Shown here piece after piece: positions 10,949 to 55,800 of a stretch of 64,000 nucleotides of DNA (its first letter is position 1; each line of letters starts with the position of its first letter). Origin of the DNA: an uncultured bacterium (GTDB lineage Bacteria > Patescibacteriota > Doudnabacteria > UBA920); contig CAVVMJ010000010.1 of NCBI GenBank assembly GCA_963749445.1, positions 117,738 to 181,737 on the forward strand. The letters are read 5' to 3'. The notes beneath the pieces are model-generated. The model was given only the letters and a program-made list of their open reading frames with translations, did not search any database and was not told the origin of the DNA. Made by a program: the position numbers and the translations under genes.

Positions 10949-12364
10949 ATGTTCTGGGCCAACTTTCTCCACATCTACCAGCCGCCGACGCAAAAACCCT
11001 ACTGGGTCAAACGCGTGGCCGAAGAGTCCTACCGGAAAATTTTTGCCGGGCTTTTGGCCACGCCCAGCGCCAAAGTCACTATGAACATCAACGGCGTGCT
11101 TTTGGAGCTGCTGGATAAAAACGGCTGCGGAGACATTTTGGAAAGCATCAAAAAACTTTTGGACAAAAACCAGCTGGAACTGGTAGGCTCGGCCAAATAC
11201 CACGCCATGCTGCCGTTTTTGCCTGAACGCGAAATTGTCAGGCAAATCCAACTGAACGAACAAACTTTAAAAAACTATTTGGGATCATCGCTGTCATTAA
11301 AAGGGTTTTTCCCTCCGGAAATGGCTTTTGACCCCAAGCTGGTGCCGATTATTTCCTCCTTGGGCTACAAATGGATTATTTGCGATGAGCTGTCTTTCCC
11401 TGCGCCCGGACAAAAACCCCAGTACGACCGCATTTATACCGATGCGCAAAACCCTTCCGTGGCTTTATTTTTCCGCGAGCGGCACATGAGCTGGGTCATC
11501 CTTTCCGGCCAGGTCGGCACCGGCCAGCTTTTGGTTTCCAGCCTGGGCGATCGGCTTAAAAAAAACGAATTCCTGCTTACGGCCATGGACGGCGAAACTT
11601 TTGGCCACCACCGGCCGGGATTGGAACAGCTGTTGTTTGAAATTTTTAATGCCGATAAACTAAAAACGGTCCGGATGTCGGAACTGTTTGACTTATTTCC
11701 CACGCGCGAAGCCCTCACTCCGCGTCCCTCCACCTGGGCGTTAATGGAAAAAGATCTGGAAGAAAAAAAACCGTTCTCGCGCTGGCAGGATCCGGACAAT
11801 ATCATCCATCAATTGCAATGGCAGCTGACCGATTTGGCGATAAACACCGTGGAGCAGGCGGACGAGCGTGCGCCCGGATTTCCCGAGGCACGCCAAACTT
11901 TGGACAGGGCGCTGCATTCCGACCAGTATTGGTGGGCCTCGGCGCGGCCGTGGTGGAGTTTGGAAATGATCGAACTCGGCGCCAAGGAACTTTATGACGC
12001 GGTGCTGCTTACGCCGGGAATTTCCGACGAAACGCGCGAGCTGGCCAGGCATTTGTACCACACCATTGTGTTCACGGGTTTTGACTGGCAGCGCTCCGGA
12101 CTGGTGGACGAGCTCTCCCGCCGGGAAGACGAAGCCGTAAGGCAGCGCACGGACATCGGCATCCCCAAACTGCCCCGGGCCGAAGTGGAAAAAATGGTTA
12201 CCGGCCTGCAAAAAGAAATGGCGGCCGTGGCGGCCGCGCAGGAATACGAGCGCGCGGCGCAAATCCGCGACCGTATTAAGGAACTGCGCGGTTATGTTTC
12301 GGATGACGGCTCTGCATTAAAAACTTCCGATGAGGGCAATCGGGAGTTCAAGTTGAATCCTTAA
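10949..12364 (+). CDS. GH57-family glycoside hydrolase (amylase / branching-enzyme type) with C-terminal UVR-like motif
   Basis: N-terminal NFLHIYQPP (GH57 HxHQP signature). C-terminal AQEYERAAQIRDRIKELRG resembles a UvrB/C UVR helix. Confidence 0.75.
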   Translation: MFWANFLHIYQPPTQKPYWVKRVAEESYRKIFAGLLATPSAKVTMNINGVLLELLDKNGCGDILESIKKLLDKNQLELVGSAKYHAMLPFLPEREIVRQIQLNEQTLKNYLGSSLSLKGFFPPEMAFDPKLVPIISSLGYKWIICDELSFPAPGQKPQYDRIYTDAQNPSVALFFRERHMSWVILSGQVGTGQLLVSSLGDRLKKNEFLLTAMDGETFGHHRPGLEQLLFEIFNADKLKTVRMSELFDLFPTREALTPRPSTWALMEKDLEEKKPFSRWQDPDNIIHQLQWQLTDLAINTVEQADERAPGFPEARQTLDRALHSDQYWWASARPWWSLEMIELGAKELYDAVLLTPGISDETRELARHLYHTIVFTGFDWQRSGLVDELSRREDEAVRQRTDIGIPKLPRAEVEKMVTGLQKEMAAVAAAQEYERAAQIRDRIKELRGYVSDDGSALKTSDEGNREFKLNP

Positions 12365-24322: not shown

Positions 24323-25834
24323 TCATAGCTCTTTGACGCGCCCAAAACCCACCGAGTCGCGGAAGGCTTTGCCGGCGGCCATCATTTGCGCCCGCAAAAC
24401 GGTAAATTCCCCGTATTTGTCGTTAATGTCATCCAGCGCTGCCACCAAAGCGCGCTGCCGCTCAATATCGCCGAATAAAGACATCTGATGAATATACGGG
24501 CGCAGGCCGGCCACGGTTACGCCGATCAATTTTATCCCTGCGACATTTATCGGATATATCCCCGTAGGGGCGGGTTTCAAACCCGCCCCTACGCCGGGCT
24601 TAATCATTTTTAGGCATTCCAGGAAAATCTCCCGCCCGTCCTGCAAAAAATATCTCAACTTTTTGCTGTCGCCGAAACCCTGATAATCTTTGTCGTGATA
24701 ATAACAGCTGATGACATTCCCCATTAACTGTTTCTTGCGCAACCGCCGGCCCACCATTTCGCAAAGCTTGTACAGCACGGGCACAAAAAATTCCGGTTTG
24801 CGGAATTCCTGCGGCAAGGTGTACATATGTCCCATGGATTTGATTTCTTGTTCCTGATGAACCTCGGCTTTCCAAGTGCCTTCCAGTTGGCCGAGATTAT
24901 ATAAATGATGACCCGCGACCCGACCAAAACGCGCCACCAAGTGGCTGCGAGGGAAATCCCGCAAGTCTTTTAAGGTTTTGATCCCCAGCTCGTTTAAATT
25001 CCGCTCCTGCCGCCGCCCGATGCCCGGGACGTCGGTAAGTTTAAGCTGATGATACAAATCACCCTTAGATAAAACAAGGCAATCGGCGCTGTAGGGGCGG
25101 ATATCATCCGCCCTTTGTCGTGGGAGGATAATATCCTCCCCTACGCAACCATTGTGAATCACCGTCAACCCATCCGGTTTTTTTAAATCCGACGCAATCT
25201 TGGCCAAAGCCTTATTATCGGCAATCCCAACGCTGCACCTGAGCCAATCCCCAACTTCGGTTTTAAACCGCCGCTTTATTTCCCGCGCAATGTTTGCCGC
25301 CTCTTCAAAGGGATCAATCGAAAATTGTCCCATCCCGACCAACGAGTGCATCCGACCCGTTCGGTTCAACTCAGGGTCGCCCTGAGCGTAGCCGAATGGG
25401 CGAGGAGTGGAGGGATCTGTCTGATATAATAGATCCCTCGGCTCATCCTCAGGTGCATTCGGATTCGCTCGGGATGGCGAAAAAAAATTCCTAACATTGC
25501 ACACCCTCGTCAAATCCAAAAAACACTCGTCAATGCTGTACTTTTCCACCTTGTCCGTATAATCGCCCACGACTTTTAAAAACCTCCTGGTGTAAAACCG
25601 GTATCGTTCGGCGTGAGTTTGGGTCAAAATAATCTTAGGATATAACTTTTTGGCTTCCCACACCGGCGTGCCGGTTTTGATGCCCCATTTTTTGGCCTCC
25701 ACAGACGCCGCGATAATAATGCCGCCCAAATGCTCGCACACGCCCACGGGCTTTCCGCGCCAACTCAAATTATCCTGCTGCTCCACAGAGGCAAAATACG
25801 AGTTCATATCCAGATGCATTATTATGGACTGCAT
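24323..25834 (-). CDS. dinB: DNA polymerase IV (Y-family) carrying three in-frame palindromic insertions
   Basis: MHLDMNSYFASVE...SIDECFLDLT...CSVGIADNKALAKIAS...; 503 aa against the usual ~360. The extra segments coincide with the repeats at 24563-24591, 25091-25144 and 25330-25500. Confidence 0.8.
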   Translation of the reverse strand: MQSIIMHLDMNSYFASVEQQDNLSWRGKPVGVCEHLGGIIIAASVEAKKWGIKTGTPVWEAKKLYPKIILTQTHAERYRFYTRRFLKVVGDYTDKVEKYSIDECFLDLTRVCNVRNFFSPSRANPNAPEDEPRDLLYQTDPSTPRPFGYAQGDPELNRTGRMHSLVGMGQFSIDPFEEAANIAREIKRRFKTEVGDWLRCSVGIADNKALAKIASDLKKPDGLTVIHNGCVGEDIILPRQRADDIRPYSADCLVLSKGDLYHQLKLTDVPGIGRRQERNLNELGIKTLKDLRDFPRSHLVARFGRVAGHHLYNLGQLEGTWKAEVHQEQEIKSMGHMYTLPQEFRKPEFFVPVLYKLCEMVGRRLRKKQLMGNVISCYYHDKDYQGFGDSKKLRYFLQDGREIFLECLKMIKPGVGAGLKPAPTGIYPINVAGIKLIGVTVAGLRPYIHQMSLFGDIERQRALVAALDDINDKYGEFTVLRAQMMAAGKAFRDSVGFGRVKEL

Positions 25835-28059: not shown

Positions 28060-28140
28060 ATATTTTTATTTCGTTAGATTAATTTTGATTTATTATAGGA
28101 TAGTTTGTCGCAAATAGCAAATTCCACGCTCTTCACGACG

Positions 28141-28230
28141 AAATTGCGAGGAGCCGGGGCTTTATCCGGCGACGAAGCAATCCCGATAAATATCAACTGG
28201 GCTGCTTTGGATGCACTCGCAGCTTCCATT
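28141..28230. mobile_element. MITE family 2 copy (AAATTGCGAGGAGCC.GGGCTTTATC.GGCGACGAAGCAATCCCGATA ... GCACTCGC)
   Basis: Shared 50-nt 5' block with the copies at 31240, 38811 and 31498 (inverted). Confidence 0.75.
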
Positions 28231-31239: not shown

Positions 31240-31336
31240 GAAATTGCGAGGAGCCAGGGCTTTATCTGGCGACGAAGCAATCCCGATATTTTTTGGGATT
31301 GCCGCGCCCCTCGCTGCATCGGGGCTCGCAATTTCC
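31240..31336. mobile_element. MITE family 2 copy
   Basis: gaaattgcgaggagccagggctttatctggcgacgaagcaatcccgata...ggctcgcaatttcc. Confidence 0.8.
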
Positions 31337-31344
31337 ACTAATTT

Positions 31345-33225
31345 TCAAACTGATTTTCTAATATCTATAATCCGCAGTTTCGCCTGCTCGTATCCATTCC
31401 ATCCGTCGCGGATGAGTTCCGCCGCAACGTCTACATTATCGCCCACTTTTAAAGTTTTGGCAAAATCGCCGCAGTTGAACATTATGGCCGGTATGATGAG
31501 CCTTGTCATTCCTGAAATCGCGAGTGCAGCCGAAGCGATCCAGTTCTTTAGCAGGATTGCTTCGCCCTCGGCTGCACTCGGGCTCGCAATTTCATCGTTT
31601 GAGCTTAACTGCATCTGCAAGTGCTGCTGGCTAGTTCCAACCAGCCGGACGGAATTGATTTTTAAATTGCGGATGAGAAACTTGGGTTTGGGGTTGCCCA
31701 CGCCGAGGGGCTCTAATTGCTGCAACAATTGACAATTAACAATTGACAATTGACTGCCATCCAGTTCTGCTTCCAATAATAACTGATGATGTAAATCAGT
31801 TTCAGAAAGGCTTGCCTCCGCGTACTCCAAAATCTTTTTATAAAATTCCTCGTATTCCGCGGTTTTCAAAGTCAGTCCCGCGGCCTGCTGGTGCCCGCCG
31901 AATTTTACAAGATGTTCGGAAGCAAATTTTAATGCCTCAATAATATTAAATTCCCCAACCGTGCGCGCCGAGCCGGTAGATTCCGTTTCCCCTCTATCTA
32001 AAATAATCGTCGGCTTGTAAAATTCTTCCGCAATGCGACCCGCCACCAAACCGACCACGCCTTTGGGCCAATCCCGCCCTAGCAGAATCAAAACTTTGCG
32101 GTCTTGGTATTTTACCGCCTGCTCGCGCGCTTCACTTAGCAACTGCCCGGTCAAATCCTGCCGGCGGCGGTTAATTTGCTCCAAGGCCAAGGCTTTTTGC
32201 TGGGCGGCCAACGCATCGGTTTCCATTAAAAGATGTAGGGCGACATTGGCGTGCTCCAACCGGCCCGCGGCATTCAGCCGCGGCGCAATGATAAAGCCAA
32301 GTGTATAAGTATCCATCGGTTTCCAGAAGGCGCCCTCTTGCAGACCGGCTGATATCATCAGCGCTTTCAAACCAACCCACCGCGTCTTAGCCAAAACCTT
32401 GAGCCCGTATTTTACCAAAATCCGGTTTTCGCCGAGCAGACTGTGGCAGTCCGCCACCGTGCCGATGGCGACAAGGTCTAACAGCCATTTTTCCCATCCT
32501 TGAATAACGGATGATCCGCGTGTAAATCCGCGTAGCCGATCCGCGTGTAAATCCGCGGCGCGCAGCAACCCACAGGCCAATTTAAACGCCACGCCCACCC
32601 CAGTTAAGTCGTGATACAGATATTTGTCGCCTGAATTTTTTGGATTTATCAGCGCGTAGGCTTTCGGCAGTTCGCCGATGATTTCATGGTGATCGGTAAT
32701 GATTAAATCGATATTGTTCGCGCGACAAAAATTAGCGGCGTCAACCGAGTTTGTGCCGCAGTCAACGGTAATGATTATCCTTGATCCTCCATCCTTAATC
32801 TTTGACAATGCGTCAACGTTGACCCCATAACCTTCGGCAAACCTGTCGGGGATGTAACTTTCAACCTCAACGCCCAAATAACGAAACGTTTGCTGCAACA
32901 CGGCATTGGCCGTAACCGCATCCGCGTCGTAGTCGCCATAAATACAAATTCGCTGATGTTTATCAATCGCTTCCCAAATCCTGTCCACCGCCTTTTGCAT
33001 ATCCCCAAACAAAAACGGGCCATGCAAATTTTCATACTTGGGATATAAAAATTCCTCAATCTGATTTTTCTCGGTTAATCCTCGATTAAACAACAATTGA
33101 GACAACAATCGCAAATCCCCTTCCCCTCTGGGGGAAGGTGGCCGGAGGCCAGATGAGGGTTCTCTGTGAATATTTGTCTGATTTTCGCCAAAATCTCTTC
33201 CGTCACCTGCGATTTTAGTTTCCAA
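31345..33225 (-). CDS. recJ: single-stranded-DNA exonuclease RecJ (DHH/DHHA1), with in-frame MITE family 2 copy near the C-terminus and a disturbed N-terminus
   Basis: DHH motifs (ITVDCG...ITDHHE). Residues DEIASPSAAEGEAILLKNWIASAALAISGMTR are encoded by repeat 31498-31596. A GC-rich repeat at 33110-33170 separates an upstream MPKNWKLKSQVTEEILAKI segment in another frame. Confidence 0.75.
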   Translation of the reverse strand: METKIAGDGRDFGENQTNIHREPSSGLRPPSPRGEGDLRLLSQLLFNRGLTEKNQIEEFLYPKYENLHGPFLFGDMQKAVDRIWEAIDKHQRICIYGDYDADAVTANAVLQQTFRYLGVEVESYIPDRFAEGYGVNVDALSKIKDGGSRIIITVDCGTNSVDAANFCRANNIDLIITDHHEIIGELPKAYALINPKNSGDKYLYHDLTGVGVAFKLACGLLRAADLHADRLRGFTRGSSVIQGWEKWLLDLVAIGTVADCHSLLGENRILVKYGLKVLAKTRWVGLKALMISAGLQEGAFWKPMDTYTLGFIIAPRLNAAGRLEHANVALHLLMETDALAAQQKALALEQINRRRQDLTGQLLSEAREQAVKYQDRKVLILLGRDWPKGVVGLVAGRIAEEFYKPTIILDRGETESTGSARTVGEFNIIEALKFASEHLVKFGGHQQAAGLTLKTAEYEEFYKKILEYAEASLSETDLHHQLLLEAELDGSQLSIVNCQLLQQLEPLGVGNPKPKFLIRNLKINSVRLVGTSQQHLQMQLSSNDEIASPSAAEGEAILLKNWIASAALAISGMTRLIIPAIMFNCGDFAKTLKVGDNVDVAAELIRDGWNGYEQAKLRIIDIRKSV

Positions 33226-37576: not shown

Positions 37577-38801
37577 CTATTTCAACGCCTCAATGCCCGG
37601 CAATTTTTTGCCGGCCAGGTATTCCAGCATGGCGCCGCCGCCGGTGGAGACGTGGTCGATGTTTTCAAATTGGTGCGCCTGACGGACGGCGTCAACCGTG
37701 TCTCCGCCGCCGACCACGACAAACGCGCGGCCCTTGCCGCGGCCGCCGATGAGCCGCGCCAACGCCATAGTGGCGTGGTGAAAAGGCCTGACTTCAAACC
37801 GTCCTAAGGGGCCGCTCCACAAAATGGTTTTGGCTTTTTTGATTTCCTGGGCGAACGCCAAAATGGTTTTTGGGCCCGCGTCCAAAACCTGTTCTTTTTT
37901 GCCGATGTCATAAGGCGTAGCCACGCGGATGGTGTCTTTGTCCATTTTCTCATCCACCACCACCACGTCCAGCGGCAACATTAACTTGTCCTTATAATTC
38001 TTTTCAATTTCCCAGGCAACCTTTAGCTTCGCCTTCCTCAATTTTGGACAAACCGATCTCCAAACCTTTAGATTTAAACATCAAATTGGCCACTCCCCCG
38101 CCCACCAAAATTTTGTCCGCTTTTTTGCCCAAATTTTCCAATGCCCCGACTTTTTCCGAAAGCTTGATGCCGCCCGTCATCACCACAAACGGATGCTTAA
38201 CGCTTTTAAGCATCATATCCAAAGATTTGATTTCTTTTTCCAAAAGCAAACCGCAATAGCTATCCAAATACTTAGTCACGCCGACCGTGGACGCGGCCGC
38301 ACGATGGTCCACGCCGAACGCGTCATTAACGTAAACATCGGCAAAACTCGCCAATTTTTTGGCAAAAACCGGATCGTCTTTTTCTTCGCCTTCGTAAAAC
38401 CGTAAATTCTCCAGCAAAATAATGTCTTTGGCCGGCGCCATCCCAAGCTGCTCCTGATGTTTTTCTTCCAGAATATTTCCGGTATAAAAAATAAAATGGT
38501 TAATTTGGTATTCCGGCAGCTTATGGTCAGTCTCCAAAAATTTATAGCCCAGCATCTCAGCCATCAATTTGGCCACGGGCTCTAAACTAAATTGCGGGTC
38601 TTTTTTGCCCTTTGGCCGCCCCAAATGCCCGCAAACAATTACCGTATTGCCTGCTGCATGCAAATGTTTAATAGTCGGAATAATTTGCTCAATCCTAAAA
38701 GCGTCGTTAACCTTGCCATTATCAATCGGCACGTTTACGTCCACGCGCAGCAGGACGGTTTTATTTTGGATTTTGGATGTTCGCAAATATTTTATAGCCA
38801 T
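37577..38801 (-). CDS. pgk: phosphoglycerate kinase, reading frame broken by a 1-nt insertion near 38020
   Basis: N-terminal part MAIKYLRTSKIQNKTVLLRVDVNVP... ends at ...IEEGEAK and continues in the -1 frame as VAWEIEKNYKDKLMLPLDVVVV...GGGAMLEYL; context gaagctaaaggttgcc. Confidence 0.8.
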
Positions 38802-38810
38802 AAAAAATTA

Positions 38811-38896
38811 TGAATTTGCGAGGAGCCAGGGCTTTAACTGGCGACGAAGCAATCTCATTAAATATTGGGATTACTTAGGCTGCACTCGCAATTTCA
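38811..38896. mobile_element. MITE family 2 copy
   Basis: gaatttgcgaggagccagggctttaactggcgacgaagcaatctcat...ctgcactcgcaatttc. Confidence 0.8.
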
Positions 38897-39190
38897 ACCG
38901 AGTAATTTAGAATATAGATCTTCCCAATTAGGATTCATTTTATTTATTAAATCTATTTTCTTTTGCCTGGAACCGCCTTTGATTTGTTTTTCTCGTTCCA
39001 ACGCGGTATACATCTCCTCAAAAACTTCGTAATATACCAGCTTGTCTACGTTATATTTTTTAGTAAACCCCTTCACTATATGCTGTTTGTGTTGCCATGT
39101 TCTCTTTATTAGTCCGTTTGTAAATCCAGTATATAAAACCGTATGTCGTTGGTTGGTCAATATATAGATATAGAACTGTTCCGATATCAT
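38894..39190 (-). CDS. GIY-YIG nuclease-family protein (stand-alone, ~98 aa)
   Basis: FYIYILTNQRHTVLYTGFTNGLIKRTWQHK...YYEVF...ALEREKQIKGGSRQKK: GIY..YIG..R..E..N core. Confidence 0.75.
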   Translation of the reverse strand: MISEQFYIYILTNQRHTVLYTGFTNGLIKRTWQHKQHIVKGFTKKYNVDKLVYYEVFEEMYTALEREKQIKGGSRQKKIDLINKMNPNWEDLYSKLLG

Positions 39191-39206
39191 ACATTGTTTG
39201 GTATTA

Positions 39207-39245
39207 TCGGGATTGCTCCGTCGGCTGCACTCCTCGCAATTTCAG
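39207..39245. mobile_element. partial MITE family 2 copy (3' half)
   Basis: gggattgctccgtcggctgcactcctcgcaatttcagg. Confidence 0.6.
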
Positions 39246-40270
39246 GAATTTTTACCCACCATAATCGCTTCCTCCACTAACCGATGAGAATACCCATATT
39301 CATTATCGTACCACGCCACAACTTTGACCAAATTACCGTCAACGACCTGGGTCAGGGCGAGGTCAATAATGGATGAGGCAGGGTTGGCCACGATGTCTTG
39401 CAAAACAATTGGTTCATCCGTTACTTCCAAAATTCCTTTAAAACGGTCGGTTTTGGCAGCGCTGATGAAGGCTTGGTTGATTTCTTCTTTGGTGACATTT
39501 TTCTTGAGCAGCATCGTAAAATCCGACAAACTGCCAACCGGAGTCGGCACGCGGAATGACACGCCGTCAAATTTTCCTTTGAGCGACGGAATTGCCTGCG
39601 TAGCCGAAATGGCGGCGCCAGTCGTGGTGGGGATTATATTGATTGCCGCGGCGCGGGCGCGGCGCAAATCATTGGATTTTCCTCCCGGCGGCGGGCCGTC
39701 AACCAAATTTTGTTCGGCCGTGTAACTGTGAATGGTGGACATCAGCGCTTTTTCCACGCCAAAAGTTTCCTGCATAATCGCCAAAACCGGCGCGATGCAA
39801 TTGGTGGTGCAGGACGCACAACTGATAATGTTTTGGTCCGCGCGATATTTATCGGCATTAACCCCTAAGACAATCGTCGGCGTCACGCCTTCGTCTTTGG
39901 CCGGCGCGCTAATGACAACCTTTTTGGCTCCGGCCTTAAGATGAGCGCCCGCCTTTTCACTATCCGTAAACCGCCCCGTGCACTCTATCACGACTTCCAC
40001 GCCCAACTTTCCCCACGGTAGCATTGCCGGATCTTTTTCCGCGGACACCGGATACTTTTTGCCGTCAACGATAATATTGGTTTCGTCATGCTCGATTTTA
40101 CGATGATAGCGCCCGTAAACGCTGTCGTATTTTAACAAATGCGCTAAAACGGCGGTGGAAGTCAAATCGTTAATTCCTAAAACCTCAACCTCCTTACGTT
40201 CCAACGCCACTTTAAACGCCTGCCGCCCGATGCGGCCGAACCCGTTGATGCCTACTTTGACTTGCTTCAT
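39242..40270 (-). CDS. gap: glyceraldehyde-3-phosphate dehydrogenase
   Basis: MKQVKVGINGFGRIGR...SCTTNC... Confidence 0.9.
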   Translation of the reverse strand: MKQVKVGINGFGRIGRQAFKVALERKEVEVLGINDLTSTAVLAHLLKYDSVYGRYHRKIEHDETNIIVDGKKYPVSAEKDPAMLPWGKLGVEVVIECTGRFTDSEKAGAHLKAGAKKVVISAPAKDEGVTPTIVLGVNADKYRADQNIISCASCTTNCIAPVLAIMQETFGVEKALMSTIHSYTAEQNLVDGPPPGGKSNDLRRARAAAINIIPTTTGAAISATQAIPSLKGKFDGVSFRVPTPVGSLSDFTMLLKKNVTKEEINQAFISAAKTDRFKGILEVTDEPIVLQDIVANPASSIIDLALTQVVDGNLVKVVAWYDNEYGYSHRLVEEAIMVGKNS

Positions 40271-43633: not shown

Positions 43634-43653
43634 TTTGGTATTTACGCTGTTTA

Positions 43654-44242
43654 CCAGTCCCCTCCTGGAACAGGAGGGGTGTCACCCGAAGGGTGACGGG
43701 GTGGTAGACACTATTTGAGATGACTTTTAATTTCTTCAATAATTCCGTTTAGATTATTCAAAACATCTTTATTCTGAAATCTGATGATTTTTATATTCTG
43801 ACTTTGTATAAATTCCGTCCGTTTTTGATCGTAATCGTAGGCTTCAGAACTGTCATGCGTACCGCCATCCAGTTCAATGCCCAGACGCTCATTAGGACAG
43901 TAAAAATCAAGAGAATATTGACCAACACCATATTGTCTCCTAAATTTTTTGCCGAGTTTGGACCCTTTCAATTCCCTCCATAAGATAATTTCCGGCAGAC
44001 CGAGGTTATTTCTAAGTTTCTTGCGTAAATCTTTGCGGCTGACATTGTTATATAAAAAGTCCATCTGTCTGCCGTTATTAGGGCTATACGCGGAGCATTC
44101 TCCTCCTATTTCAGGAATATCATCAGAATATAGGAGGGGTGCCCCGCCTTTGGCGGGACGGGGCGGTAATTTTATGAATTGCTGATGTCTACCACCTCCC
44201 CCCGCTTCGCGGGGTACTCCTCCTGTTCCAGGAGGAGACTAC
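43654..44242. mobile_element. GC-rich TIR element carrying DUF559 endonuclease gene (copy 1)
   Basis: Left end ccagtcccctcctggaacaggaggggtgtcacccgaagggtgacggggtgg. Right end ccacctccccccgcttcgcggggtactcctcctgttccaggaggagactact. Terminal inverted repeat tc.cctcctggaacaggagg. Confidence 0.7.
43711..44064 (-). CDS. DUF559 (Vsr-like restriction-endonuclease-fold) protein
   Basis: ...LWRELKG...FRRQYGVGQYSLDFYCPNERLGIELDGGTHD...IIRFQNKDV... is the PF04480 pattern. Confidence 0.75.
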   Translation of the reverse strand: MDFLYNNVSRKDLRKKLRNNLGLPEIILWRELKGSKLGKKFRRQYGVGQYSLDFYCPNERLGIELDGGTHDSSEAYDYDQKRTEFIQSQNIKIIRFQNKDVLNNLNGIIEEIKSHLK

Positions 44243-44563
44243 TTAACTCCGTTTTGTCGTTATTTGATAATTTTTCTTTCTGAAACGGCGGATGACAAGT
44301 AAAATTATAAAGCTAATTAAAATCCAAAAAAATAAATTAAGGAATAAAACTGATAAATCACCCAAAAATAATTCGTGATTTTTAAAAGGGAACCCAAAAT
44401 CATATATTTTAGGGCAAGGCCCCAAAAAGCAATCAGGCTGATAACTGTTCAAAGTCAGAAGACTGGCGACGACATCAATCAAAAATCCCAACACCACGCT
44501 CCACGCCGCCAAACCGGTTTTTGACTGTAAGCTGAAGATTTTCATGTTTGTTTCTGCCGTCAA
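44243..44563 (-). CDS. hypothetical membrane protein
   Basis: 106 aa, 2-3 TM helices. Confidence 0.4.
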   Translation of the reverse strand: MTAETNMKIFSLQSKTGLAAWSVVLGFLIDVVASLLTLNSYQPDCFLGPCPKIYDFGFPFKNHELFLGDLSVLFLNLFFWILISFIILLVIRRFRKKNYQITTKRS

Positions 44564-52177: not shown

Positions 52178-53761
52178 CTACTCTATTAATTCCCCACCGA
52201 ACACCTTGAGCACGTCGCCCAAGTTTACTGCCGCGCCTTCGGCCGCCAGTGGTTTGATTACCGCGCCGCGCACGGCCAGGGGCTTGCCGCTGATTTCCCG
52301 GATGACTGATGAAATCATGGCTTGATTTTTAGCATTTTCCAAATTGGCTTTGTCAAAATTAAACTTCACGCCCACAATTATGGCCCGGCCCAAAACGCCG
52401 TCTAGTGACGCGGTCTTAATTAAACTGGCCAGCGGACAGTTGCGCTTTTTGAGTTCCGCGATAAATTTTGGCCACCAAGCGCGGACTTCCTCCAAAGTTA
52501 TGGCTTCGGCCAAAGGAGTTTCATCGTCCGCCGATAATTCCGCGACCTCATCTTTTTTTGTTTCCGGATGATTACTGACCACGACCGTCGGTTGTTTAAC
52601 CGGCGCTGACAGAACCGCCGATCCGATTTTCTGATTTTCCGATTTATCCGATTTGCCGGATCTCCGCTGCGCCGCTTCCAAAGCCGCCAACAGCAGCGGA
52701 ATCTCGCCGCGCGGGCTGGAATTCAAATCTTTATACGACTTTAAAAACAGCCGCACGATAAAAATCAATTCCTGCGGATTGGCCAAAGCGGCCTGCTTTT
52801 TTATCTCCTCCTCGTGTTCTTTAGCCAGACCGGATAAACCTCCGCCGCTGACCTGAAAAATTAAAATTTTGCGCAAATATTCCAAAAAGTCGCGGTTAAA
52901 CACGGCCAAGTCCGCGCCCTGTTCCGATAAATTATCAAAAAACGCGGGAATCTCCGCCATCTTGCCGGCCAAAATGTGGCCAAGCAAACGGTGGCAGACG
53001 CCAAAGTCTGTAATGCCCAACAGCTGCTGGCAATCTTCCAAAGTGGCGTCTTCTCCCAAGGTAATAACTTTATCCAGCAAACTTAAAGCGTCGCGGACGC
53101 TGCCCTCGGCGTTGTCCGCAATCAGCCTTAAAATTTCTTTATTTAATTTAAAATGTTCAGCCTTTAAAATCTTTTCCAGATGTTCGGCCAATTCCCCGGG
53201 TTCCAACAGCTTAAAGTCAAACCGCTGGGTGCGCGAGATAATCGTAGCCGGCACTTTGTTGGCTTCGGTGGTAGCCAGCACAAAAATGGCATGCTGCGGC
53301 GGCTCTTCCAAAGTTTTCAAAAGCGCGTTAAACGCGCCCTTGCTGAGCATATGGACTTCATCGATGATAAAAACTTTATACTTGCCCACGGACGGGCTGA
53401 ACCTGACGTGCTCCACCAAATCGCGGATATTGTCCACGCCGGTGTTGGACGCGGCGTCAATTTCCACCAAATCCAAAAAGTTGCCGTTCTGTATTGCCAT
53501 GCAATTTGCGCACTTGCCGCAAGGGTCCCCCTCATCCGACTTAGCCCTTAGCCCTTCACCCTTAGCCCTATTCTCGCAATTCACCGCCTTGGCCAACAAA
53601 CGCGCCAAAGTGGTTTTGCCAATGCCGCGGCTGCCAGTAAATAAATAAGCGTGCGCGACCGAACCCGCCGCCACCTGATTTTTCAACGTGCGAATAATGT
53701 GCTTTTGCCCCAAAACCTCTGCGAAGGTCTGCGGTCGATATTTGCGATATAGTACAGCCAT
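52178..53761 (-). CDS. dnaX: DNA polymerase III subunit gamma/tau with in-frame gggctaag repeat insertion
   Basis: MAVLYRKYRPQTFAEVLGQ...GSRGIGKTT...; AKGEGLRAKSDEG inside the Zn-finger region is encoded by repeat 53538-53572. Confidence 0.85.
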   Translation of the reverse strand: MAVLYRKYRPQTFAEVLGQKHIIRTLKNQVAAGSVAHAYLFTGSRGIGKTTLARLLAKAVNCENRAKGEGLRAKSDEGDPCGKCANCMAIQNGNFLDLVEIDAASNTGVDNIRDLVEHVRFSPSVGKYKVFIIDEVHMLSKGAFNALLKTLEEPPQHAIFVLATTEANKVPATIISRTQRFDFKLLEPGELAEHLEKILKAEHFKLNKEILRLIADNAEGSVRDALSLLDKVITLGEDATLEDCQQLLGITDFGVCHRLLGHILAGKMAEIPAFFDNLSEQGADLAVFNRDFLEYLRKILIFQVSGGGLSGLAKEHEEEIKKQAALANPQELIFIVRLFLKSYKDLNSSPRGEIPLLLAALEAAQRRSGKSDKSENQKIGSAVLSAPVKQPTVVVSNHPETKKDEVAELSADDETPLAEAITLEEVRAWWPKFIAELKKRNCPLASLIKTASLDGVLGRAIIVGVKFNFDKANLENAKNQAMISSVIREISGKPLAVRGAVIKPLAAEGAAVNLGDVLKVFGGELIE

Positions 53762-55539: not shown

Positions 55540-55800
55540 CCTTTTCCGCCCAATGGATCCTCCCCTGCGGCAGAACTGCGAAGTAACATCTGCATTTTGG
55601 TGTTCCATTCCGAGCGAGTTCGAATGCAGCTGAGGACGAGCCGAGGAATCTATCACTTTTACAGATCCCTCCGCTCCTCCTCGCCCATTCGGCTCCGCTC
55701 AGGGCGACCCTGAGTTTATCGAACGGGTCGGATGCTACTTAGTCGTCGGTCGGGATGGAACATCCGGAACAGAATTCCGAGGAAATATTCTTGATTACAA
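55540..55800. repeat. GC-rich modular repeat (same family as 3697-3995; carries the extra module that is also present, inverted, inside dinB)
   Basis: gttccattccgagcgagttcgaatgcagctgaggacgagccgaggaatct...ccctccgctcctcctcg + module cccattcggctccgctcagggcgaccctgag... + tcgtcggtcgggatgga...cgaggaaatattcttgatta. Confidence 0.75.

Follow-up and report, generated by a model that had tools for sequence, protein, structure and literature searches.

A gene with the signature of a small nuclease was found between two glycolytic genes, gap and pgk, in a Candidatus Doudnabacteria-like genome, with hairpin-forming repeats on either side of it. This arrangement raises the question of whether a nuclease gene became wedged among MITEs, as a preliminary description of the locus had proposed, or whether the gene and its flanking repeats belong together. 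The locus was analysed within a 64-kb stretch of DNA (referred to here as the window) and compared with its counterparts in relatives and with homologues from other phyla.

The gap-ssn-pgk locus

The order of genes on the minus strand of the window is gap, a 98-aa ORF (designated here as ssn) and pgk:

39242..40270, minus strand, gap (GAPDH), upstream neighbour on the same strand as ssn, identified by Pfam Gp_dh_N and Gp_dh_C
38894..39190, minus strand, ssn-like gene encoding a 98-aa single-domain GIY-YIG nuclease, identified by Pfam, alignment with SsnA and conserved residues
37577..38801, minus strand, pgk, downstream neighbour on the same strand as ssn, represented by two overlapping ORFs with a frameshift near 38022-38044

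The deduced 98-aa protein was matched by the Pfam GIY-YIG family PF01541 (E 2.4e-14, residues 6-78) as its sole domain, with nothing else returned from Pfam and no family from NCBIfam. A sequence search of the PDB gave a single, weak match to the UPF0213 protein 1zg2 (E 0.029), and the ssn-like protein was therefore not assigned to the UPF0213 family; the literature on COG2827/YhbQ/UPF0213 likewise provided nothing useful for this protein. The Pfam result, the coordinates and the folds reported below agree with the earlier recognition of a stand-alone GIY-YIG ORF between pgk and gap, with a complete repeat element downstream. The gene is present as a single copy within the 64-kb window. A weak tblastn match at 12059-12217 (E 0.044) falls within a GH57/UVR-motif ORF and was not accepted as a further GIY-YIG gene.

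No promoter-like site was detected between gap and ssn, the single match (39330-39302) falling within the gap ORF, and no terminator-like site was detected between gap, ssn and pgk, for which reason the three genes are probably co-transcribed. The hairpins at the locus were not followed by a terminator-like T-run.

With respect to pgk, the overlapping ORFs 38004-38801 and 37577-38041 correspond to Pfam PGK positions 4-236 and 236-379, respectively, and a tblastn comparison with the PGK of a relative (L005) located the frame switch within GCTAAAGGTTGCCTGG (38022-38044). The switch could be genuine, in which case an essential glycolytic gene carries a frameshift, or it could stem from an error in the assembly.

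Repeat units at the locus and elsewhere in the window

The sequences flanking ssn were resolved into three units of a single repeat:

39210..39243, minus strand, unit U1, forward relative to ssn, composed of the tag GAA + ATTGCGAGGAG + TGCAGCC + GACGGAGCAAT + CC
38868..38895, minus strand, unit U2, forward relative to ssn, with a degenerate inner box GTAATCC; inner arm of the downstream dimer
38812..38855, plus strand, unit U3, reversed relative to ssn, with its tag outward (towards pgk); outer arm of the downstream dimer

The minus-strand sequence of unit U1 is GAAATTGCGAGGAGTGCAGCCGACGGAGCAATCC, and 19 nt separate the end of this unit from the ATG of ssn. Units U2 and U3 form a head-to-head dimer (38812-38895), an 84-nt palindromic element downstream of ssn (GAATTTGCGAGGAG...CTCGCAATTTC) with a predicted folding energy of -16.3 kcal/mol as ssDNA (z -3.5). 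The upstream sequence had been described as a half copy of such an element; it is indeed an arm of this repeat family (39210-39243), but is better regarded as one complete unit, since the full elements are dimers. Units U1 and U3 constitute 25-nt terminal inverted repeats around the whole locus, with 84% complementarity. The TGA stop codon of ssn (38896-38894) overlaps the first bases of U2, which starts inside it, and the stop codon of gap is composed of the T at 39244 and the GA of U1; the repeat end TGAAATTGCGAG thereby supplies the TGA stops of both genes.

Dimers of the same repeat family were also observed at three other positions in the window:

28140..28229, plus strand, dispersed dimer between a 160-aa ORF and mreB, right arm degenerate
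31240..31335, plus strand, dispersed dimer between an RNase H-like gene and recJ; -26.1 kcal/mol as ssDNA, z -4.2
31514..31593, plus strand, dimer in frame inside recJ (aa 544-572); -26.3 kcal/mol as ssDNA, z -6.4

Each full element is a head-to-head dimer of the unit GAA + ATTGCGAG(GAG) + variable spacer + (GACGAA)GCAAT + CC, in which the spacer between the boxes often pairs with itself as a small hairpin of its own. The units start with (T/G/A/C)GAA-AT, every one contains ATTGC...GCAAT, and all eight carry a C just after the palindrome, while the tags of the four dimers point outward. The GAA-tagged units can be written as GAAATTGCGAG...GCAATCC. When folded as ssDNA, the dimers gave z scores from -2.5 to -6.4, except for the degenerate copy at 28140 (z -1.1), and a single unit, with its 5-bp stem and long spacer, folded weakly (-5.9 kcal/mol, z -1.6).

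The window units listed here were identified with a specific pattern and BLAST, as a looser unit definition with the GAA tag did not rise above chance (16 hits in the whole window versus 11.7 +/- 3.1 in shuffles). The terminal 14-mer, allowing up to two mismatches, was found seven times in the window compared with 0.73 expected, a number that none of 100 shuffles reached, and four of these seven matches are units of the Ssn-type repeat family. Three of the eight clear units in the 64 kb fall within the 435-bp ssn locus, where by our own arithmetic ~0.05 would be expected, and this clustering is not due to chance. Inverted termini as seen in MITEs and insertion sequences are present at the locus, but no target-site duplication was visible at any of the four window dimers and no transposase was associated with them. 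At gathering threshold, Rfam reported only a tRNA for the whole window and nothing for the hairpins, and in the literature the repeat sequences themselves were matched only by unrelated primers.

The in-frame dimer within the recJ ORF (31345-33225, minus strand) encodes DEIASPSAAEGEAILLKNWIASAALAISG and splits the RecJ_OB match in two, with the ORF running 55 aa beyond. In this it is reminiscent of the in-frame palindromic elements of Rickettsia and of REPs described from within repair genes.

Two further repeat arrangements were noted in the window. One family (…CTCAGGGTCGCCCTGAGCG.AGCCGAATGGGCGAGGAG…GGAGGGATCTGT…) is present at 25364-25500 and 55560-55720 in opposite orientations, one copy being located at the start of a dinB-like ORF (24323-25834), where it overlaps the N-terminal codons, and the second copy immediately following a TraG/VirD4-like gene; a CGAGGAG core is all that it has in common with the Ssn-type units. 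In addition, two 67-nt inverted repeats of 76% complementarity (43644-43710 and 44186-44252) enclose a gene (43711-44064, minus strand) for a DUF559/Vsr-like nuclease of 117 aa; both repeats contain CCTCCTG..CAGGAGG hairpins, and these repeats occur nowhere else in the window. This gene is found at the same rpe-tkt position in the relative L001/L003, and together with its hairpins it may constitute another nuclease-plus-hairpin pair, belonging to a different family.

Homology to the Ssn family of ssDNA endonucleases

The Ssn family comprises site-specific ssDNA endonucleases characterised in Neisseria and Wolbachia, and its prototype is SsnA of Neisseria meningitidis, a single-domain GIY-YIG protein of 94 aa that binds NTS (CGTCATTCCCGCGMAVGCGGGAATCYRG) in single-stranded form and cleaves the DNA a few nucleotides upstream of this repeat (PMC11893778). 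Neither dsDNA nor RNA nor the reverse strand is a substrate of the enzyme (Chenal et al., Nat Commun 2025, PMC11893778), and homologues from three other species behave alike (PMC11893778). The three bases preceding the palindrome mainly affect cleavage by SsnA, while the C following the palindrome is the key binding base; among Ssn homologues, 71% have SRM motifs nearby and 42% have them on both sides (PMC11893778).

In a tblastn search of a 7.3-Gb plasmid collection, a Neisseria gonorrhoeae chromosome was matched (E 6e-19). The matching locus contains a 94-aa ORF with seven exact matches to the published NTS consensus in 1.5 kb, and the ORF was therefore considered the SsnA orthologue. Two N. 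gonorrhoeae records of this collection are whole chromosomes labelled as plasmids (L169, for example, is NZ_CP119140.1 of PLSDB, 2.17 Mb), and it was this mislabelling in PLSDB that made the gonococcal ssnA locus available for comparison. The window protein and the gonococcal ORF, which served as comparator in place of N. meningitidis SsnA itself, were aligned by BLASTP over 93 residues without gaps (42% identity, 69% positives, E 6e-29), a value that lies well within the E < 1e-10 by which homologues of SsnA have been defined (PMC11893778); the protein is a candidate member of CDD cd10448 (GIY-YIG_unchar_3), the domain family of Ssn nucleases. Residues Y9, Y20, G22, R30, H34, E65, E67 and N86 of the window protein occupy columns that are at least 95% conserved among 73 homologues, and the conserved GIY and YIG tyrosines and the metal-binding acidic residue typical of Ssn proteins are all retained. 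Substitutions V23F and I64L are the only ones specific to the Doudnabacteria clade.

The flanks of the window gene also correspond to those of Ssn genes: two units point in the direction of the gene, one before it and one at its stop codon, and a third, downstream, is reversed. In N. gonorrhoeae, too, a forward repeat directly follows the stop codon. In both systems, a single-domain GIY-YIG protein of ~94-98 aa is encoded between oriented hairpin repeats, each composed of a 3-nt tag, a palindrome starting with AT and a C thereafter, and further repeats are dispersed in the genome. The window units differ from NTS in their tag (GAA instead of GTC) and in their ATTGC/GCAAT boxes with a long, often self-pairing spacer, compared with an 8-bp stem and a loop of 3-5 nt in NTS. 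The window gene is, furthermore, embedded in a glycolytic operon, and its host belongs to a group (Candidatus Doudnabacteria-like, Patescibacteria) that is not mentioned in the main text of PMC11893778.

The published SRM search sequence, HGTCWYN(0-2)YYVSBRHN(0-5)WNVSBRGN(0-2)RNCYNB (PMC11893778), gave seven hits in the 1.5 kb of the gonococcal positive control and matched none of the window's units, because their tag is GAA and their spacer is longer than the pattern allows. Its single match in the window (52279-52307) is located outside the repeat family and looks like a chance hit. The elements around ssn are best described not as unrelated MITEs between which the gene is wedged, but as the cognate, target-type repeats of Ssn nucleases (Ssn/SRM, PMC11893778).

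Association of Ssn homologues with repeats across phyla

The homologue family is very large, comprising at least 8000 candidates, and identities of 65-72% were observed in unrelated phyla among the matches listed. The flanks of 80 homologue loci from species-representative genomes were examined, with unit statistics calculated on 71 of these. As the published SRM search sequence matched neither the window units nor the flanks of these 71 loci (zero matches), a generic unit with its own control was used, defined as GTC + AT + a 3-mer, followed within 4-40 nt by the complementary 3-mer + AT, and searched for within 150 nt. A forward unit was present upstream at 34 of the 71 loci (48%) and a reversed unit downstream at 39 (55%), with both at 20, compared with a background of 1.4% among 5084 control strand-windows from the same loci. 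Seven stem triplets (TGC, TCT, CCC, CCT, TCC, CGC and GCT) each occur with their complement, which supports the presence of a hairpin within each unit, and for 64 of 73 homologues a GTCAT-tagged box lies no farther than 150 nt away. The published pattern seems to be tuned to NTS-like, GC-rich stems and would undercount the ATTGC, ATTCT, ATCCT and ATCCC subtypes.

In many phyla, the ORF is positioned in the loop of a split palindrome, with (C)GTCATTGCGAG...CGAAGCAATC upstream and its reverse complement downstream; this layout was observed in Eubacteriales, Gamma- and Alphaproteobacteria, Saccharibacteria, Endomicrobia, Parcubacteria, Chloroflexota and others, and dimers devoid of an ORF are often found near homologue loci. 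In a Xanthobacteraceae-like context, a 72%-identical homologue is bordered on both sides by CGTCATTGCGAGGAG...CGACGAAGCAATCCCG dimers, which represent the window's boxes with a GTC tag. A 71%-identical homologue in another context carries the GAA tag, and homologue loci in other phyla carry a CGTC or TGTC tag. The link between a small nuclease gene and hairpins, first remarked upon for the window, is therefore real and general (71 loci, 1.4% background).

Signs of multiple copies were observed in some of the sampled genomes. One Bacteroidales MAG (L052, L066 and L072) carries three ~900-bp ssn units with 88-94% identity, extending from ~500 nt upstream to ~90 nt downstream of the ORF, and tandem copies of ssn homologues are present in L062 and L079. 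Furthermore, a contig end lies no more than 600 nt from 19 of 78 homologues, as is typical for repeats that interrupt assembly.

These data bear on the possibility that the gene and the hairpins are coincidental neighbours, the latter being ordinary REP- or terminator-like structures in a repeat-rich genome and the protein an unrelated repair or structure-specific nuclease (UvrC/Cho- or Slx1-like). Dimers do adjoin mreB, the RNase H-like gene and recJ, in one case inside recJ, and as stably folding structures transcribed within operons they could have the RNA-level roles suggested for such repeats (PMC3733652); yet the hairpins lack the T-run of a terminator, and three of the eight units are concentrated within 435 bp of ssn. 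Coincidence also leaves unexplained why the association recurs in many phyla at ~35-40 times background with matching stem variants, and why binding to exactly such a repeat type has been demonstrated for a homologue of the protein (PMC11893778). An accidental adjacency is thus very improbable.

Conservation and age of the locus

The relatives with the closest proteins are represented by four distinct contigs (L001/L003, L002, L004/L166 and L005, the last being a Candidatus Doudnabacteria MAG). Ssn is 80-89% identical in these relatives, compared with 78-89% for gap and 62-80% for pgk, and the Ssn protein is thus as conserved as GAPDH and more conserved than PGK. In all four, the gene occupies the gap-ssn-pgk position with a forward unit just upstream of its start. 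A forward unit directly after the stop codon, as in the window, and the downstream dimer at or next to the stop codon were found in L001, L004 and L005, while L002 retains only the outer reverse unit. Like the window units, those of the Doudnabacteria relatives L001, L002, L004 and L005 are tagged with GAA, not GTC. The synteny comparison called for in the preliminary description hence revealed gene and flanks together, and no relative with the gene but without the flanks.

Among the ssn orthologues, pN ranged from 0.03 to 0.15 and pS from 0.62 to 0.92, with synonymous sites saturated, and dN/dS was 0.03-0.10 where computable. Given the shared site in four relatives, the saturated synonymous sites and the low dN/dS, the insertion of ssn is old, fixed and under strong selection, and the notion of a recent insertion was abandoned. 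In distant bacteria (GAPDH 47-55% identical), pgk is located 18-165 nt after gap with no GIY-YIG gene at ~22 of 80 loci; ssn is therefore, historically, an addition to a conserved gene pair, which bears out the earlier view that it interrupts a glycolytic gene run. A metagenome scan with GAPDH yielded no close relative (best 65% identity), and the gap-pgk adjacency that it showed is therefore that of distant bacteria. No presence/absence polymorphism of ssn was found, the gene being at the same site in all relatives examined.

A second, divergent GIY-YIG gene (39% identical) was observed in L005 at 1281-1556, ~2.7 kb upstream of ssn. The repeats flanking this second gene (TTCGAC.T..TGGAGAA) are unrelated, and no counterpart of it was found at the equivalent position in the window.

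The absence of polymorphism is relevant to the idea of a classical, free-standing GIY-YIG homing endonuclease (Seg- or I-TevI-like) whose target would be a dsDNA site in those gap or pgk alleles from which the gene is absent. The window gene shares its catalytic fold with I-TevI, I-BmoI and T4 Seg and is, like these, a small free-standing gene between conserved genes. It encodes, however, no DNA-binding domain beyond the 98-aa catalytic domain, has no phage or intron context (with no homologue in 50,697 phage records) and is present in every relative examined; its characterised homologues, moreover, act on ssDNA and do not cut dsDNA. Homing of this kind is extremely improbable, and both it and coincidental adjacency are poorly supported.

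An active selfish element would explain more of the architecture. Under this explanation, ssn and its bordering units would together form an autonomous cassette, IS-like or homing, that entered the gap-pgk interval recently, and the ORF-less dimers would be non-autonomous MITE derivatives still mobilised by the nuclease. The 25-nt terminal inverted repeats give the locus an IS-like appearance, ORF-less dimers have a short loop exactly where full copies have the ORF (e.g. L011), multiple copies are indicated elsewhere by the three ~900-bp Bacteroidales copies, the L062 and L079 tandems and the loci near contig ends (19/78), Ssn identity between phyla (65-72%) exceeds that of gap (47-65%), and gap and pgk are adjacent in distant bacteria. 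The discoverers of SsnA themselves likened the NTS-ssnA-NTS layout to an insertion sequence, suggesting domestication, an analogy that is their hypothesis (PMC11893778). At the locus studied here, however, ssn is a single copy held at the same site in four relatives, with saturated synonymous sites and strong selection, none of the four dimers has a visible target-site duplication, presence/absence polymorphism was not found, and a hydrolytic GIY-YIG nuclease alone is incapable of strand transfer. A currently active selfish element at ssn is thus unlikely, given the fixed position of this constrained, single-copy gene; as the origin of the locus such an element is plausible, and it is possibly active in other genomes.

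Comparison with other repeat-associated enzymes

REPtrons consist of RAYT genes, encoding an IS200/IS605-like Y1 transposase, flanked by GTAG REPs. The window locus is comparable in that a single-copy, vertically kept nuclease gene lies between inverted hairpin repeats, with dimers dispersed elsewhere, and in that its enzyme would recognise an ssDNA hairpin. It differs in its enzyme, a hydrolytic GIY-YIG nuclease instead of an HUH/Y1 transposase, and in its repeat superfamily, and mobilisation of its repeats is hypothetical. A wholly new GIY-YIG 'REPtron' had been considered, a claim to novelty that was dropped once PMC11893778 was found.

CGTC-tagged REPs have stems that begin with AT, occur mostly as head-to-head dimers and are sometimes located inside repair genes (Di Nocera et al. 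2013, PMC3733652). They have stems of 8-9 bp and loops of 4-5 nt, include Neisseria dRS3 and Rickettsia RPE-4/6, and were concluded to lack a dedicated transposase, with roles at the RNA level being suggested (PMC3733652). The window units resemble them in stems starting with A-T and T-A pairs, in their head-to-head dimers and in occasional in-frame copies within replication or repair genes, here recJ. However, the window units do not possess the unpaired CGTC (or TGTC/CCTC) end tag, their stem and loop dimensions differ, and they flank an Ssn gene, whereas no dedicated enzyme was found for the CGTC-tagged REPs (PMC3733652).

Based on these likenesses, a broader scheme may tentatively be put forward, although we consider it rather doubtful. 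Ssn genes within split dimers might be the missing autonomous partner of the 'orphan' CGTC-type REPs, as a GIY-YIG analogue of RAYT/REP REPtrons, with ORF-less dimers as non-autonomous derivatives spread by nuclease-triggered ssDNA events; the Doudnabacteria copy would then have been domesticated, its enzyme and repeats having co-evolved to the GAA tag and hence to a new cleavage specificity. The position of the ORF exactly in the dimer loop, the multi-copy genomes, the unusually high identity across phyla and the in-frame dimer in recJ are compatible with such a scheme.

Proposed role of Ssn in Doudnabacteria-like genomes

Homology to SsnA, active-site residues, repeat architecture, association across phyla, conserved synteny and purifying selection have been shown for this locus. 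Taken together, they identify the ORF as an enzyme of the Ssn family, the 'MITE family 2' elements as head-to-head dimers of its cognate repeat and the gene as a fixed resident of the gap/pgk locus, with a probability that we estimate at ~0.8. The locus is a new example of a published system in a Candidatus Doudnabacteria-like genome, and not a new kind of mobile element; the ssn-like gene and its repeats open no new category.

By analogy with SsnA, the small single-domain GIY-YIG enzyme would bind the tagged hairpin repeat in ssDNA and cut a few nucleotides 5' of the repeat. The presumed recognition unit consists of a GAA tag, in place of the usual GTC, followed by ATTGCGAG, a variable spacer, GCAAT and C. 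With one forward unit preceding ssn, another starting in its stop codon and a reversed unit closing the locus, the gene is contained inside a split palindrome, as in other phyla. In the Doudnabacteria-like lineage, ssn is a strongly constrained single-copy resident, probably expressed with gap and pgk, whose product would act on ssDNA exposing the GAA-tagged units that flank ssn and are scattered through the genome.

ssDNA-specific cleavage next to the GAA-tagged units by the window protein is an extrapolation, because the tag bases reported to govern cleavage by SsnA differ (GAA versus GTC). Since these bases are reported to control cleavage (PMC11893778), the replacement of GTC by GAA predicts an altered specificity. 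The enzyme may have a role in processing ssDNA in which the repeats are exposed, such as incoming transforming DNA or replication and repair intermediates.

In conclusion, what appeared to be a nuclease gene trapped among MITEs is replaced by the published system of Ssn nucleases and hairpin repeats, which is hereby extended to a Patescibacteria (Candidatus Doudnabacteria-like) genome. The repeat subtype ATTGCGAG...GCAAT is missed by the published search pattern, though it flanks most of the close homologues sampled. The change from GTC to GAA in the bases reported to control cleavage by SsnA predicts a new enzyme/site pair, which might serve as an ssDNA tool, and the status of ssn as a fixed operon resident, conserved to the same degree as GAPDH, argues for a host function rather than pure selfishness.
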